In this document: one piece after another, positions 7,294 to 11,972 of the stretch
How the letters are laid out: each line of letters begins with the position of its first letter
Position numbering within the stretch: position 1 is the first letter of the stretch
Translations under genes and position numbers: made by a program
Virus record (IMG/VR): IMGVR_UViG_2713896773_000004
Coordinates: 1-11,972 of that record
Reading direction: 5' to 3' (one strand)
Length of the DNA stretch: 11,972 nt
Source of the DNA: a virus
Lineage: Duplodnaviria; Heunggongvirae; Uroviricota; Caudoviricetes
The notes under the pieces: generated by a model
The model's database searches: none
The model's input: only the letters and a program-made list of their open reading frames with translations
What the model was told of the DNA's origin: nothing

Positions 7294-7598
7294 GGCAGGT
7301 CGCCGCAGCGTTGTACACGCCGGGACCGACTCTCGCGGAGTTAGCCGCTTTTGGTTTGACGCCTGAGGACGTGGAGGAAGAGGTGGGTATCCTGCCCTCT
7401 GTGTGGAAGTCTTTCACCATCTTCTCTGCCCTGGCAACCCAGTGGCGCGTCGGCGCGAGCGGGGCGACCGGCCTTGATTACAACGTTCTCCCCTGGATGT
7501 TCGAGTTACACGGGGTTGAGGATGCGGCGGCCTGCATGGCTGACCTTCAAATTATGGAAAGCGAGGCTCTCAAGGTAATGCATAAGGAGACGAAATAA
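6955..7598 (+). CDS. Tail assembly chaperone frameshift fusion (gpGT-like), made by -1 programmed ribosomal frameshift at 7284-7290
   Basis: 0-frame codons GAA AAA AAC TAA place the heptamer A_AAA_AAC at 7284-7290. After a -1 slip, reading continues CTA AGG CAG ... (LRQVAAALYTPGPTLAEL...) to the TAA at 7596-7598. This is the same frame as track ORF 7311..7598, which has no credible independent start (TTG, no RBS). Predicted fusion is about 214 aa. Confidence 0.6.
7284..7290 (+). other. -1 programmed ribosomal frameshift slippery heptamer A_AAA_AAC
   Basis: AAAAAAC in X_XXY_YYZ register relative to the G reading frame, directly upstream of the G stop codon. Confidence 0.6.
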
Positions 7599-10500
7599 TG
7601 ACAGACCAGATCGCCTCGATTACTTTGCGGGCCGATGTTTCTGACCTGAAAACAGCCAGCAACGAACTGGATAAACTCGGCCAGGCGGCGGCCGGTGCTG
7701 TAGATAAAGCAGATGATCTGAATAGCGTGTTTCGCGCTGGCGCTGAATCTGCGAAGCAAGGCAGCGAAGGACTCAAGGAGCAGCAGAACGCGCTCAAAGG
7801 GCTGCTGGAGAATATCGACCCGGTTACCAAGGCCTTAAACCGCCTGGATGAGCAGCAAGAATCGCTGCGGAAATTCCAGGCCAAAGGTTTCCTGGATACC
7901 GATACCTTTCAGGCATACAACAAAATCCTGGATGACACCCGCCTCAAGCTGACCGACACCGGAGAAGCCGCGGCGCGCGCTCAGGCTGAATTAGCCGCTA
8001 CCCAGGCGGCAGAAAAGCAGTCCGCAGCGTTAAAGAACCTTCTTGGATCCATCGACCCGACTATCCGCGCGTTCAATTCGTTGGATGAACAGCACGCACA
8101 GCTGGTGGAACATTTCGAAGCTGGGCGCATTAACGGTGCTCAGTTCGAGCACTTCAACACAATCCTTAACCAGACGCGTGAGCGCCTCTCTGGTGTCGCT
8201 GACGTACTACCAGAGGCGCTATCCCGGCAGGAAGCTGCTGCCCGGCGCGCTGGAATCTCCGTTGGTCAGTACAGCGCAGCAATGCGCACGCTTCCGGCGC
8301 AATTCACCGATATCGCCACGCAGCTGGCTGGCGGTCAGTCGCCGTTCCTGATTCTGCTGCAACAGGGCGGGCAGATTAAAGACCAGTTCGGCTCGGTTCA
8401 GGGGGCGCTGTCCGGCGTCGGCGAATACATCCGCAGCATGGCTGGGATGATTAACCCTACCACAATCGCACTTGGTGGGCTGATTGGCACGATCGGCCTG
8501 CTGGCTGCCGCAGCGTATAACTCCTCGGAGCAATTTGAGCAGGTGGCACGCTCTGTCATCATGATGGGTGGGGCTGGCTTCTCCTCAATGCAGCAGCTCA
8601 ACCAGGCCGCTGAGGAAGTGGCTGGCAAGACGAATACATCGATTAGCTCCACCGTCGATACGCTGGTTACGTTGAACGATACTGGCAAATATACCGCAAG
8701 CCAGATGAAGCAGGTCGCAACGACCATCACCCTCATGGGTAAGGCCGGAAATGATACCAAAGCGGCAATAAGCGACTTCGGAAAGATTGTCAGCGATCCG
8801 GTTAAAGGGCTTGCCAGCCTCAATGAACAATATGGTTTCGTTGATGAAGCCATGATCAAGCACATTATCCAGCTACGTAAGCAGAAGGGTGAGCAGGCGG
8901 CTGTTACCGAAGCTATTGAGCTGTTTGCAGGCGTCATGGCAAAGCGCGCAGAGGAGACCAACAAAGCGACCGATAATATCGGTCAAACGTGGGAAAACCT
9001 TAAAAAGAGCGCTTCTGACACCTTTGGCGATATAGGTATTACCGTGCGCGCATGGGGAAACCAGATCATTGATATTTTCGAACTGGTTAAATCCTCGATC
9101 AAAGACTTGTTCCTCAATATCACCTCTCTGGACGCCAAGTTCACCAGCACCATCGCTGGCTGGGCAGACAAAATCCCGGGTGGCGGTGCGCTGGCTAATT
9201 TCCTCGGCATGGACGTTGAGGCAATGAAAAAGGCTGGAGCGGAGGCGGACAAAGAGATTGAGGCGAACAAAAAACGCTATAACGAGCTTTGGAAGCGCGT
9301 CACTGCGCCTAACGCACAGGCAAACTATGAGGCTGAAGCGCGAGGGTCTAACGTAAAAGGTGATGGAGGAACAAGTCGAGAATCAAGAGACGCAGTCTCG
9401 AAGCTTGCACAAGACTCAGACAAAAAGACCAAAGAGGCAAAAGCCACGCTGGATGCTGGCGATCGCACCCTGGAGAACTACCGCGCCCAGGCCAGAACGT
9501 TAACTGAAACGCTCGAGACCCTCCGACAAACAGGCGAAACCCACGCTAAAAACACCGAGTTCAGTAAACAGCAATCTCGATTTGCTGAATTGGATGAGGC
9601 AGCCAAAACCCGCGCGTTGACTGCTCAGGAAAAATCTTTACTGTCGAGCCGTGAGGCGATTCTGAACGCCGCCAAGGTGGTTGATCAGAAGAACAAGGAA
9701 GTAGAGGCGCAGCAGAAGATTAACGGCCTGGCGCAGCAGGCGAATAAATACGTCACGCAGATGTCGGAAAAAACCGATGCATTGCGTGATAGTGTAGGCC
9801 TCAGCAGTCGGCAAACGCAGCGCATGATGGAAGAGGCACAGCTTCGCCAGGGCTGGCTCAACGGTGGCGGTAAGCTTGATGATGCTGGCTATGAGAAAGA
9901 ACTGGCAGCCCTCAGAAATTATTACGCTGAAGAGGATAAGCTGCGCGGCGATTGGAAATCAGGTGCTATCAGCGGCTGGAATGAGTATCTGGACGCTGCC
10001 ACCAATACCTACGATGCCGTGAAGAATGTTGCCAGCTCCACGCTAACAGGCCTGAGCGACATGCTGACCGAGCTCATGACGACCGGCAAAGCATCGGTCA
10101 AAGAGTTCGGCAAATCCATGCTCAAGATGATCCTGGATGTGACGAACCGCCTCATGGTGGCCTACGCGGTGCAAGCTGCTATGGGATGGATCAGTGGGAG
10201 CGCGGGAGGTGGCGCTACACCCGGCGGTGCTTATGCCAATGCGGCCGCTGGTGTAACGTTCAATGCTAAAGGCGGCGTATACGAATCACCCGGCCTCAGT
10301 AAATATGTGAATGGCGTCTACGATTCTCCTCAATATTTCACATTCCAGGGCGCGTCGAAGTTTGCCAAAGGCGGGGTATTCGCTGAGGCAGGGGCTGAGG
10401 CGATCATGCCGCTGACGCGGGATTCTGCTGGTCGGCTTGGTGTCAGGGCGCAAGGCGGGGGCGGTGCGCAGCCTCAGGTCAATATTGATATCTACGTTGA

Positions 10501-10651
10501 TAACAAGGGCAACACATCATCAAATACGTCCGGAGACGGCAGTGCTGCGGCGCGTGCCTTAGGCAAGGAAATTGAAGCAAAGGTTACGGAGATCCTCGTG
10601 AGGGCCGCTCGGAGTGATGGTTTCCTGGGCAAAACGTTCCAACCCAAATAA
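7598..10651 (+). CDS. H: Tail tape measure protein (lambda gpH homologue)
   Basis: 1017-aa ORF whose ATG overlaps the upstream stop (TAATG), RBS AAGGAGA. Segment [53 protein letters not shown] is near-identical to the lambda gpH segment I recall ([49 protein letters not shown]). Also has hydrophobic Gly-rich segments and a Gly/Ala-rich C-terminus typical of tape measure proteins. Confidence 0.9.
   Translation: [1017 protein letters not shown]
7790..8188 (+). repeat. Intragenic tandem duplication in the tape measure N-terminal region (two diverged copies of about 54 aa, period 79 aa)
   Basis: Residues 65-118 ([54 protein letters not shown]) and 144-197 ([54 protein letters not shown]) align without gaps at about 44% identity. 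Nucleotide copies are diverged, sharing short strings such as ATCGACCC. Confidence 0.7.
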
Positions 10652-10693
10652 GAAACTGCTGTGATTCTGAGATGGGAATATCATCTGCACCTG

Positions 10694-10722
10694 GTTACAG
10701 CGACACATCCCTTGGTTATCAT
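10694..10722 (+). promoter_or_regulatory. Candidate sigma70 promoter for the first island gene
   Basis: GTTACA (10694-10699), 17-bp spacer, TATCAT (10717-10722). Predicted start about 10729, upstream of RBS AAGGGG (10742-10747). Pattern match only. Confidence 0.3.
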
Positions 10723-10753
10723 GAGCTAAACCATGCTAATCAAGGGGATGATA

Positions 10754-11128
10754 ATGAAGGCGCTCAAAATTGGCCTTGCAGGGATTGTTGTTATTTACTT
10801 GCTCATCAATGCCAGTAAATCACAAGAGATAAAAAGCGAAGATATACCTGCGTTTGCTAAAAGTGAGTCAAATGTATGGATAGCTAATACACTGGGCCAG
10901 CCGGGCGCAGACGTCATCAAAAGCTCTACCTACTACCTTAAGCGTGAGATTCCAGAAGAGGATATTGTTTATGGCTATCTTTGTGGAACCATAACAACTG
11001 GCGAAAGATTCTTTACTGAGGTCTCGATCAATAAGCGCAAGCACACGTCTGGCATTTTCAAAAATATGATATTTGATAAACGCAATGCAAAGACGTTTAA
11101 TCAGATCTGGAACACTGAGTGTAAGTAA
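10754..11128 (+). CDS. Hypothetical secreted or membrane-anchored protein with N-terminal signal peptide (cargo island gene A)
   Basis: Track ORF 10733..11128. I prefer ATG 10754 (or 10748), 6 nt after AAGGGG. N-terminus MKALKIGLAGIVVIYLLINA-SKSQ has a basic n-region, hydrophobic core and Ala at the putative cleavage site, with no lipobox Cys. Mature part has two Cys. Local GC is about 40%. No family recognised. Confidence 0.55.
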   Translation: MKALKIGLAGIVVIYLLINASKSQEIKSEDIPAFAKSESNVWIANTLGQPGADVIKSSTYYLKREIPEEDIVYGYLCGTITTGERFFTEVSINKRKHTSGIFKNMIFDKRNAKTFNQIWNTECK

Positions 11129-11149
11129 CCATCAAGATCACCCAACACA

Positions 11150-11175
11150 GCCTCGCATACGCGGGGCTTTTTTAT
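11150..11175 (+). terminator. Rho-independent terminator after island gene A
   Basis: GCCUCGC-AUAC-GCGGGGC hairpin (one G-U wobble) at 11150-11167, followed by TTTTTTAT. Confidence 0.6.
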
Positions 11176-11203
11176 ATCTGTAGCCGAGAGGCAGGAGAAC
11201 GTT

Positions 11204-11461
11204 ATGGAAATGACTGTAGGATTCCCTGAAATGGGTTCGCGATTTGAATCTGTAAGCTTCGATCCAGATTTAGAAATTAAAATGATAAAGACTGTCAGAA
11301 CCAAAATTACAGTTTGCAAGCTTGAGCAAATCAATGCGCCTCATGAACTGGTGTTTATCTATCAGGAGGATTTCAATCCAGGCAGCTCTTTTGCCGAAGT
11401 CGAAGCACGCGCCAAAGAATATGCCAGTAAGGCAATTGCCGGATTGAAAACCCCGGCTTAA
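11204..11461 (+). CDS. Hypothetical small acidic protein (cargo island gene B, 85 aa)
   Basis: ORF with AGGAGA RBS 6 nt upstream of ATG 11204. AT-rich codon usage unlike the structural genes. Its stop codon lies in the loop of a hairpin that can terminate the convergent minus-strand gene. No family recognised. Confidence 0.5.
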   Translation: MEMTVGFPEMGSRFESVSFDPDLEIKMIKTVRTKITVCKLEQINAPHELVFIYQEDFNPGSSFAEVEARAKEYASKAIAGLKTPA

Positions 11462-11467
11462 CCGGGG
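11447..11467 (-). terminator. Candidate rho-independent terminator for minus-strand gene C
   Basis: Plus-strand CCCCGG-CTTAA-CCGGGG (11451-11467). On the minus strand the hairpin is followed by UUUU (complement of AAAA 11447-11450), 8 nt downstream of the gene C stop. The U-tract is short, so strength is uncertain. Confidence 0.4.
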
Positions 11468-11474
11468 CAAAGCA

Positions 11475-11705
11475 TTATTTGATGCGATGGTAGATGTTAT
11501 CAGCCCTGGCGTACAATTTGGATACCGCCTCGGCACGACCTTGCTCTTGCATCGTCATTTTTGATGTATCTCCACCGTAGGCCTTCGTCATATACTCAGT
11601 AACGCGCTTGCGAAAAGCTCCAGCATCACCTGATTCGACAGTGGCAACAGCTAATAAAAACGCTAAGGCTTCATCCTGCTGGTCTTCTTTGTTAAAGCTC
11701 ATCAT
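11475..11705 (-). CDS. Hypothetical small protein encoded antisense to the late operon (cargo island gene C, 76 aa)
   Basis: Minus-strand ORF starting ATGATG (complement of 11700-11705) with AGGAG 3 nt upstream (complement of CTCCT 11709-11713). Protein MMSFNKEDQQDEALAFLLAVATVESGDAG..., no family recognised. It is the only credible minus-strand gene in the window. Confidence 0.55.
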   Translation of the reverse strand: MMSFNKEDQQDEALAFLLAVATVESGDAGAFRKRVTEYMTKAYGGDTSKMTMQEQGRAEAVSKLYARADNIYHRIK

Positions 11706-11753
11706 AAACTCCTGTTATACCGAGGCCATCAGCCGCACCGTCGGCAATTAATG

Positions 11754-11774
11754 CGCCAGTGCCCACCACTGGCG
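11754..11774. repeat. Perfect 8-bp inverted repeat with 5-bp spacer upstream of gene C
   Basis: CGCCAGTG-CCCAC-CACTGGCG, located about 50-70 bp upstream of the gene C start codon on the minus strand. Candidate operator or RNA hairpin. Confidence 0.4.
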
Positions 11775-11834
11775 GGCTGAATCCACAACATAACCAGGTA
11801 TTTTGATTTGTAACATCCTGATATTCAGACAGTA

Positions 11835-11857
11835 GCCACCTTCGGGTGGCTTTTTTT
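11835..11857 (+). terminator. Rho-independent terminator (perfect UUCG tetraloop hairpin plus T7) immediately upstream of gene M
   Basis: GCCACC-UUCG-GGUGGC (11835-11850) followed by TTTTTTT (11851-11857). The RBS GGAG and ATG of the next gene follow within 12 nt. Confidence 0.7.
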
Positions 11858-11868
11858 ATGGAGCAAAT

Positions 11869-11972
11869 ATGGCAGTTGAAACATACAGCTGGCGCTCGCA
11901 GCTCGGTGCTGGGGCGATTGAATATAGTCAAACGGTGCGCGCTGCGCAGTTCGGTGATGGCTATGAGCAGGT
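11869..11972 (+). CDS. M: Minor tail protein M (lambda gpM-like), 5' partial, continues beyond the window
   Basis: ATG at 11869 with GGAG 5 nt upstream. Translation MAVETYSWRSQLGAGAIEYSQTVRAAQFGDGYEQ matches the N-terminal pattern of lambda M as I recall it (MKTFRWKVKPGMDVASVPSVRKVRFGDGYSQ), including the FGDGY motif. Truncated by the window end. Confidence 0.7.
   Translation, partial: MAVETYSWRSQLGAGAIEYSQTVRAAQFGDGYEQ

Follow-up and report, generated by a model that had tools for sequence, protein, structure and literature searches.

Morons of lambdoid phages were treated by Juhala et al. (2000), as summarised in PMC3594210. Genes 22 and 23 of phage HK97 are annotated as encoding a "moron product" (Gp22) and a "reverse moron product" (Gp23) and lie, with putative terminators, between the tail genes I and J. 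A study of the Salmonella transcriptome documents a prophage gene that lies antisense to the lytic genes and is transcribed on its own, and calls this kind of location typical of moron loci (PMC7067206). In the GenBank annotations of moron phages that we examined, only terminators are marked and no folded leader. With regard to the structures discussed below, 5'-terminal stem-loops of the ompA type stabilise bacterial mRNAs, and integron gene cassettes carry attC sites that are folded strand-specifically. The put RNAs of the lambdoid phage HK022, which lie directly behind a promoter, fold into two stem-loops over some 70 nt (PMC9378689), and AgvB and AsxR are prophage non-coding elements at moron sites, the AgvB genes (51-60 nt) being found at the PR' moron site, where they are convergent with the moron CDS.

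The window (the whole stretch of 11,972 nucleotides that was analysed) is a lambdoid late region, in which an island of deviating GC content (0.444 vs 0.544 for the window) with three ORFs is located between a tape-measure ORF of 1017 aa (7598-10651) and the start of a lambda-M-like minor tail gene (11869-11972, plus strand; the identical region is annotated as 'phage tail protein' in E. coli). Two of the island ORFs are a forward moron gene homologous to HK97 gp22 (11204-11461, plus strand) and, convergent with it, gene C (11475-11705, minus strand), which is homologous to gp23. Genes 22/23 of HK97 are thus direct homologues and are likewise inserted between conserved late genes, with low GC content and their own predicted terminator; the difference is that the HK97 cassette lies between I and J whereas that of the window lies between the tape-measure and M genes. 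Gene C encodes 76 aa from the ATG at 11705-11703 or 75 aa from a second ATG at 11702-11700 (both on the minus strand), and its product is 95% identical to HK97 gp23 and gave no Pfam or PHROG family. The gp22-like gene, gene C, the leader and the terminator together are 90% identical at the DNA level to HK97 14452-15145. In HK97 a T-to-C change removes the gp22-like stop codon (Gp22 is 120 aa there and 85 aa here), and a 2-nt indel lengthens Gp23 to 86 aa compared with 76 aa for gene C. As would be expected for a moron, the same cassette was found at other junctions in other phages, the GC content deviates and in E. coli ABWA45 a different gene precedes the same M gene.

The first island ORF (10733-11128, plus strand, 131 aa, no Pfam or PHROG match) looks like a separate forward moron, with a promoter-like site (GTTACA-17-TATCAT, 10694-10722) and a terminator-like hairpin with a T-run (stem 11149-11168, from the terminator scan). 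In E. coli LR536430 it is replaced by a gene for a zinc-ribbon protein and similarity to the window starts near 11140. Imperfect inverted repeats were seen around its start at 10788-10825 and 10710-10760 (15 nt with 87% and 13 nt with 85% complementarity).

Both ends of the reverse-oriented unit are marked by terminators. A predicted intrinsic terminator of gene C (CCCCGG-UUAAG-CCGGGG then UUUU; 11447-11467, minus strand) corresponds to a site annotated for HK97 gene 23, and its hairpin sits in the 3' end of the forward gp22-like gene, straddling the stop codon of that gene. This predicted terminator of its own and the annotation of the HK97 homologue as 'reverse moron product' agree with the view, taken in an earlier sequence-only reading of this DNA, that gene C is a stand-alone unit. 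The cassette is closed on the outside by a strong plus-strand intrinsic terminator (AGCCACC-TTCG-GGTGGCT then T7; 11834-11858), which was listed by the terminator scan (11834-11851) and ends 10 nt short of the M-like start codon. Equivalents of this terminator are annotated in HK97 and ES18, and its stem covaries in relatives (GCCACC/GGTGGC vs GCCGC/GCGGC). Most plausibly, it stops unmodified plus-strand transcription, e.g. from the forward moron, from reaching the tail genes in the lysogen. Q-modified late transcription of lambdoid phages reads through terminators and would be expected to pass this one too. The cassette would then use both strands, with the terminator on the plus strand and the promoter and leader on the minus strand. 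In eight other E. coli genomes the match to the window (98-99%) begins only at 11848, inside the terminator hairpin, and continues into the M gene; at least in ABWA45 a different gene lies upstream, and a mosaic junction is thereby placed within the terminator. In four viral contigs (L075, L044, L098 and L111) a GC-rich hairpin without a T-run was present at the terminator position.

The 163-bp spacer between gene C and the M-like gene (11706-11868) contains, at 11754-11774 and thus 49-52 nt ahead of the start codons of gene C, the inverted repeat CGCCAGTG-CCCAC-CACTGGCG, the 8-nt arms of which are 100% complementary and separated by 5 nt. The sequence-only reading had noted it as a perfect 21-bp palindrome in an AT-rich 5' region, unlikely to occur by chance. 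Its presence was confirmed; since the CCCAC spacer is asymmetric, it is an interrupted inverted repeat and not a perfect palindrome, and the surrounding 163 bp have a GC content of 48.5%, compared with 54.4% for the window and 46.3% for gene C, and are therefore not AT-rich. Chance occurrence was examined using dinucleotide-preserving shuffles of the window or of the 163-bp spacer. The whole window contains one perfect 8-bp inverted repeat with a loop of 3-8 nt (and seven when gaps up to 40 nt are allowed), vs 1.28 +/- 1.26 with the 3-8 nt loop in the shuffles, so that at this scale the repeat is not unlikely by chance. For the spacer alone it is mildly unusual, given that 1.3% of the shuffles contain such a repeat. 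As judged from the homologues described below, the non-randomness of the repeat rests on conservation and covariation in relatives and not on this single sequence.

The spacer that separates gene C from the next late gene, about 160 nt in length, proved to be a conserved non-coding cassette. A sensitive DNA search with 11700-11868 gave matches in 301 of 5426 complete E. coli genomes and in 62 phage records; among the phage matches, many of the weakest are confined to the terminator hairpin. In most matches the similarity starts at the inverted repeat and extends away from gene C, into unannotated regions. The conservation in homologous islands on which the sequence-only reading had made its proposal depend was thus found, and it argues that the repeat is functional. 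Each annotated case that was inspected has the element directly 5' to a small ORF that opposes the late genes, with a late gene next on the other side. Five different late-gene junctions were seen to carry the cassette: I|J in HK97, HK022 (gp23), mEp506 and the MB06232 prophage, M|L in ES18 (gp25) and SPN3UB, H|M (the tape-measure and M genes) in the present window, the position after Rz in HK633 and mEp213, and S|R (holin/endolysin) in an Stx2a phage. The cassette is also present, with 99.8% identity, in three E. coli genomes, where it lies at the H|M junction wherever the context was read.

Further relatives were collected with a pattern located outside the repeat (GGGCTGA...CCAGG...CCTGA) in viral contigs and with a second pattern in species genomes, where 12 of the 32 matches were due to chance and were removed by a hairpin filter. 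The roughly 20 species genomes that carry the element are all Enterobacteriaceae and include Citrobacter, Enterobacter, Kluyvera, Phytobacter, Atlantibacter, Dryocola, Pantoea, Buttiauxella and Pseudocitrobacter, whereas a protein-based search of the species genomes for relatives of gene C found none. The resulting alignment (A7) comprises 90 distinct sequences in the gene-C sense. The covariance model built from it (R1) finds a single copy in the window, at 11700-11798 on the minus strand (76.8 bits), and likewise a single copy in each of nine cassette-carrying loci. Two leader copies about 2 kb apart were present in an Enterobacter bugandensis contig (CAXYPO010000002.1; L154 and L162), and one prophage can therefore carry more than one such cassette.

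On the minus strand the repeat corresponds to a stem-loop, P2 (RNA 5'-CGCCAGUG GUGGG CACUGGCG-3'; 11754-11774), that is preserved by compensatory changes. Across the 90 sequences its pairs are formed in 98.2% of cells, and 4 of the 8 pairs change on both sides; since the aligned sequences are related, such cell counts overstate the number of independent events. The changes include swaps of the whole stem (CCAGUG/CACUGG, CCCAUG/CAUGGG, UCCAUG/CAUGGA, UCAACG/CGUUGG and CCGGUG/CACCGG), and pair 3, which occurs as U.G in 41, C-G in 27 and U-A in 22 sequences, looks like a classical path via a wobble intermediate. None of 500 column shuffles reached the values observed for covariation of P2 and of P3, a second hairpin described below, sliding the partners by 1-3 columns lowered pairing to 29-47%, and RNAalifold found the P2 stem unprompted. 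The loop is not invariant and the spacer between the arms varies from about 5 to 7 nt.

The non-Watson-Crick pairs were strongly strand-specific. Read in the gene-C sense, the P2 cells concerned are 63 G.U and 13 mismatches, and in the opposite sense 3 G.U and 73 mismatches; the same bias is seen among the 26 distinct stem variants, and the predicted fold is more stable in the minus sense for 54 of 56 variants. The individual leader of the window is not unusually stable in a single-sequence fold (z = -1.2), in which a competing hairpin (GCCCGCC/GGUGGGC) is preferred. This 7-bp hairpin (GCCCGCC-AGU-GGUGGGC, 11759-11777, minus strand) is the minimum free energy fold for the window variant, with its GUGGG loop in P2, and a similar CCCGUC/GGUGGG pairing is open to the common P2 variant. 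The variants with swapped stems cannot form it, and the competing hairpin is therefore probably not conserved.

These results bear on the two functions that the sequence-only reading had proposed, of which the first was an operator, i.e. a site in duplex DNA at which a dimeric repressor would act on the promoter of gene C. In its favour are the perfect 8-bp arms, the closeness to a presumed promoter, the conservation in relatives and a position that would be about +5 to +30, where a bound protein could act as a roadblock. The half-sites are however not conserved: the 26 stem variants include complete replacements in which only the complementarity is kept, the 5 to 7 nt spacer would shift the half-sites on the helix, and an asymmetry of 63 vs 3 G.U is meaningless for duplex DNA. 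In addition, the expected recurrence of the palindrome was not seen, with no second copy in the 12-kb window when up to 3 mismatches were allowed, the element precedes 28 unrelated cargo families (see below) with no common regulator gene, and the neighbouring ORFs gave no match to a DNA-binding family. Given that a duplex site for a symmetric protein shows neither stem swaps nor strand bias, the operator reading fails and we regard it as very improbable; a palindrome beside a promoter need not be an operator.

The second proposal, a hairpin that blocks transcription entering from the M side, was not supported either. Neither strand has a U-run after the stem, the flanks being CAUUAAUU on the minus and GGCUGAAU on the plus strand, and the repeat is for this reason not a terminator; the terminator scan, too, does not list 11754-11774. 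Furthermore, M lies on the other strand, and no transcription is therefore expected to enter from that side.

The strand bias also bears on the idea that the repeat belongs to an RNA of the plus strand, be it a small RNA with this hairpin at its 5' end and the 11834-11858 terminator at its 3' end (for instance an AgvB-like sponge against GcvB) or the late mRNA, in which it would form a structure. A hairpin followed after about 60 nt by a strong terminator does resemble an Hfq-type small RNA, the conserved block begins at the hairpin in many phages, and the plus strand carries CACAACA at 11785-11791. This motif is the GcvB R1 target consensus (PMC4104026). As in AgvB and AsxR, we are dealing with a prophage non-coding element at a moron site, which in the plus sense has a CACAACA motif and a terminator end. 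It differs from them in that it is flanked by late structural or lysis genes and that its functional strand is the opposite one, i.e. the mRNA-sense strand of the reverse ORF. Read in the plus sense, P2 has 73 mismatches and 3 G.U and its fold is the weaker one in 54 of 56 variants, a promoter for such an RNA would need to sit in the non-conserved cargo region, and CACAACA is a non-conserved part of a variable stretch (TTACACATT in HK97). For AgvB (RF02702) and AsxR (RF02703), both of which are in Rfam, 10500-11972 gave no match at E<=10 and the nine loci gave none at E<=0.5. An AgvB-like or other plus-strand Hfq small RNA was ruled out by the Rfam result, by the location and size of AgvB and by the strand test, and for a plus-strand RNA element in general we see very little likelihood.

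The remainder of the leader is built around two invariant blocks. The hexamer UCAGCC (11775-11780, minus strand), immediately 5' of P2 and proposed here as the region of transcript start, is invariant in all 90 sequences, and GGCUGA (11729-11734), also invariant, lies in the loop of P3 (CCGACGG-UGCGGCUGAUGG-CCUCGG in the window; 11720-11744, minus strand), which is separated from P2 by a linker of about 9-20 nt and is predicted in nearly all variants. P3 reads GGAGGGA-UGGCUGAUUA-CCUCUG in most relatives. The foot of P3 covaries (CAGAGG/CCUCUG, CGGGGG/CCUCCG, GAAGAGG/CCUCUUU and ACCGAGG/CCCGGU), with changes on both sides of 6 of 6 pairs in the 90 sequences, and like P2 it is strand-biased, with 45 G.U in the minus sense vs 21 in the plus sense and a more stable minus-sense fold in 72 of 76 variants. 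Its 5' arm resembles a Shine-Dalgarno sequence and its 3' arm an anti-Shine-Dalgarno sequence, and the Shine-Dalgarno sequence of gene C itself (AGGAG, 11709-11713, minus strand), read from the sequence, follows. UCAGCC is complementary to GGCUGA and may form a pseudoknot or an alternative outer helix with it; the pairing is broken in a few sequences, and with both sides otherwise invariant, covariation speaks neither for it nor against it.

Complementary blocks of this kind suggest that the leader might act as a riboregulator that switches pairings on a protein (e.g. CsrA on GGA), a small RNA, a ligand or temperature, with P2 as the scaffold of the sensor. The invariant single-stranded blocks, the chain of mutually exclusive segments (AUCAGG:CCUGGU, CCUGG:UCAG, UCAGCC:GGCUGA and P3), the GGA in the common P2 loop (GUGGGA), in the 5' arm of P3 and in the Shine-Dalgarno sequence, and the P3 loop, which is invariant, unlike that of P2, are all compatible with this. 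None of the alternative pairings covaries, however, GGA is missing from both the P2 loop and P3 in the variants of the window and of HK97, there is no evident conserved core of the ligand type and no Rfam family matches. We therefore hold it unlikely that the leader is a riboregulator in which P2 serves as the sensor scaffold.

A rejected candidate within P3 is a leader peptide (AUG GCU GAU UAC CUC in many copies), the AUG of which is missing in the window, in HK97 and in other variants and lies only 1-2 nt from the Shine-Dalgarno-like run. An HK022 put-like antiterminator was also dismissed. Put RNA and leader have in common a pair of stem-loops that span some 70 nt close behind a promoter, putative in the case of the leader, and the occurrence in a lambdoid phage; putL and putR as read from HK022 have no sequence resemblance to the leader, and the leader covariance model has no match in the HK022 put locus (L132). 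The leader differs further in being followed by a short ORF and a terminator, where read-through would have no obvious purpose.

The sequence 5' of UCAGCC suggests where transcription of gene C might begin. A -10-like hexamer (TATGTT, of the form TAnnnT; 11787-11792, minus strand) follows CCUGG-n and is a candidate element of the gene C promoter. In 54 of 54 sequences that were gathered by a pattern without that motif, nTAnnnT follows CCTGG, and UCAGCC comes after a gap of variable nucleotides that measures 6 nt in 52 of them and 7 nt in the other 2. CCUGG-n-TA-nnn-T and what follows it thus resemble a -10 element (G at -14), its discriminator and a start site. A -35 element could not be recognised for this putative promoter, and at this place the consensus scan reports none on the minus strand. 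Where a -35 element would be expected, the sequence is taken up by P1, an inverted repeat with a variable centre (AUCAGG...CCUGGU; 11793-11822, minus strand) and with arms that are conserved in relatives. Candidate roles for P1 are a promoter spacer, an operator or a part of a longer leader. Since P1 also looks like a minus-sense hairpin (its minus-sense fold is the more stable in 49 of 58 variants), the transcript could start further upstream, in which case P2 would not be 5'-proximal. A promoter upstream of P1 (TACTGT) was considered and rejected, the motif not being conserved in the Stx-type or TACTGA variants. The Stx-phage variants (L008, L022, L026, L085 and L086) are without the terminator hairpin, and the coding sequence of the next late gene starts only about 8 nt past P1. 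Because of these 8 nt and the lack of conservation of TACTGT, the downstream start of transcription is preferred. A sigma-54 promoter overlapping the stem (TGGGAC-N-GCGCA) was rejected as a poor match by eye in a stem of non-conserved sequence. Literature searches found no published transcript data for reverse-moron genes.

The leader is also joined to ORFs in a regular manner, which couples it to translation. An ORF follows 112 of 116 leader copies, with a median length of 78 aa and ATG as start codon in 107, and mostly starts 22-28 nt after GGCUG. The ORFs themselves are diverse: the 87 unique cargo products fall into 28 clusters without BLASTP similarity to each other, and in the annotated phages other than HK97 the cargo ORFs cannot be aligned with gene C (7-16% identity) while the non-coding element aligns well. 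Pfam and PHROGs gave no informative family for gene C and the other cargos tested. The usual cargo is a helical protein of 60-100 aa; larger cargos of 268, 210 and 154 aa occur in the viral contigs L121, L066 and L041, respectively, and may be defence or enzyme genes on the same leader.

One conserved structured element joined to many unrelated small genes, with strand-specific folding, recalls the attC sites of integrons, and the repeat could accordingly be a hairpin formed by minus-strand single-stranded DNA, acting as a signal for recombination or replication and as an attC-like handle for cargo exchange. Structure is conserved rather than sequence, at least 28 unrelated cargos, spread over five genomic positions, share this flanking element, and strand bias alone cannot separate RNA from single-stranded DNA, because G.T is the mismatch best tolerated in the latter. 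The element is nevertheless located 5' of the ORF and runs into the Shine-Dalgarno sequence and start codon at fixed spacing, which points to translation, and P3 has Shine-Dalgarno-like and anti-Shine-Dalgarno-like arms. Beside the cassette, the annotated phages have neither a dedicated recombinase nor an integron integrase, and ordinary homologous recombination between the conserved leader and the late genes would suffice for the exchange of cargo. We consider a single-stranded DNA signal barely probable, and judge the resemblance to integrons, by analogy, to be one of population genetics only and not of mechanism.

Starting from the observed conservation, pairing, strand of folding, fixed spacing to the ORF and diversity of the ORFs, we consider it likely that P2 is a stem-loop in the structured 5' leader RNA, encoded on the minus strand, of a portable cassette for reverse-oriented morons. 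In the gene-C sense such a cassette would consist of the reverse complement of the plus-strand terminator, which would shield the next late gene, followed by P1, gGnTAnnnT, 6-7 variable nt, UCAGCC, P2 (8 bp), the linker, P3, the Shine-Dalgarno sequence and the start codon. Transcription would start a few nucleotides before or within UCAGCC, which would leave P2 about 5-10 nt from the 5' end of the transcript. P2, possibly stacked on a UCAGCC:GGCUGA helix, could then protect the 5' end from decay, and P2 and P3, folding autonomously, would keep the ribosome binding site usable whatever cargo is attached. The leader would in this way be a context-insulating stabiliser for genes that are expressed from a repressed prophage. 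That its specific role is that of a 5'-proximal stabilising hairpin which, with P3, keeps the ribosome binding site usable for any cargo is put forward tentatively, and a regulated switch that uses the invariant complementary blocks is given a small chance. With hairpins of the ompA type P2 shares a short GC-rich stem near the putative 5' end of the mRNA, in which the pairing is conserved and the sequence is not; it differs in being only one part of a larger conserved leader, which also has a second hairpin and single-stranded blocks that do not vary.

In terms of known systems, the leader is that of a moron transcription unit with a structured 5' UTR. The gene pair is already known and annotated in HK97. 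With Rfam 15 the window gave only weak matches below the gathering scores, driven by the plus-strand terminator, and the nine loci gave none at E<=0.5. Literature searches on reverse morons, srb and moron leaders returned no description of a folded leader, and searches with the conserved sequence blocks returned only unrelated primers. To the extent checked (Rfam, annotations and the searched literature), a folded leader common to unrelated cargos thus appears to be undescribed.

Morons carry many of the prophage genes that alter the host, including those for exclusion, defence and virulence, and their expression from a silent prophage is usually dismissed with the phrase "own promoter and terminator". 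Here one folded leader, present in HK97, HK022 and about 5% of complete E. coli genomes, fronts dozens of unrelated small proteins, and the reading of the repeat as an RNA stem in the leader of gene C, and of this leader as a portable expression cassette for reverse morons, is one that we hold with good confidence. The covariance model offers a combined sequence and structure signature for finding such genes, and to judge from its many partners the leader would be a compact natural 5' UTR compatible with many coding sequences. A common leader suggests one mode of expression for these genes. A more speculative and rather unlikely extension is that it is a pseudoknotted riboregulator common to at least 28 cargo families, which would give all reverse morons of enterobacterial lambdoid prophages a single post-transcriptional input, its conserved sequence doubling as a homology handle for the swapping of cargo. 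If this were true, the common input would be a host protein, a small RNA or a physical signal, and the leader would define a cassette system for lysogenic-conversion genes.
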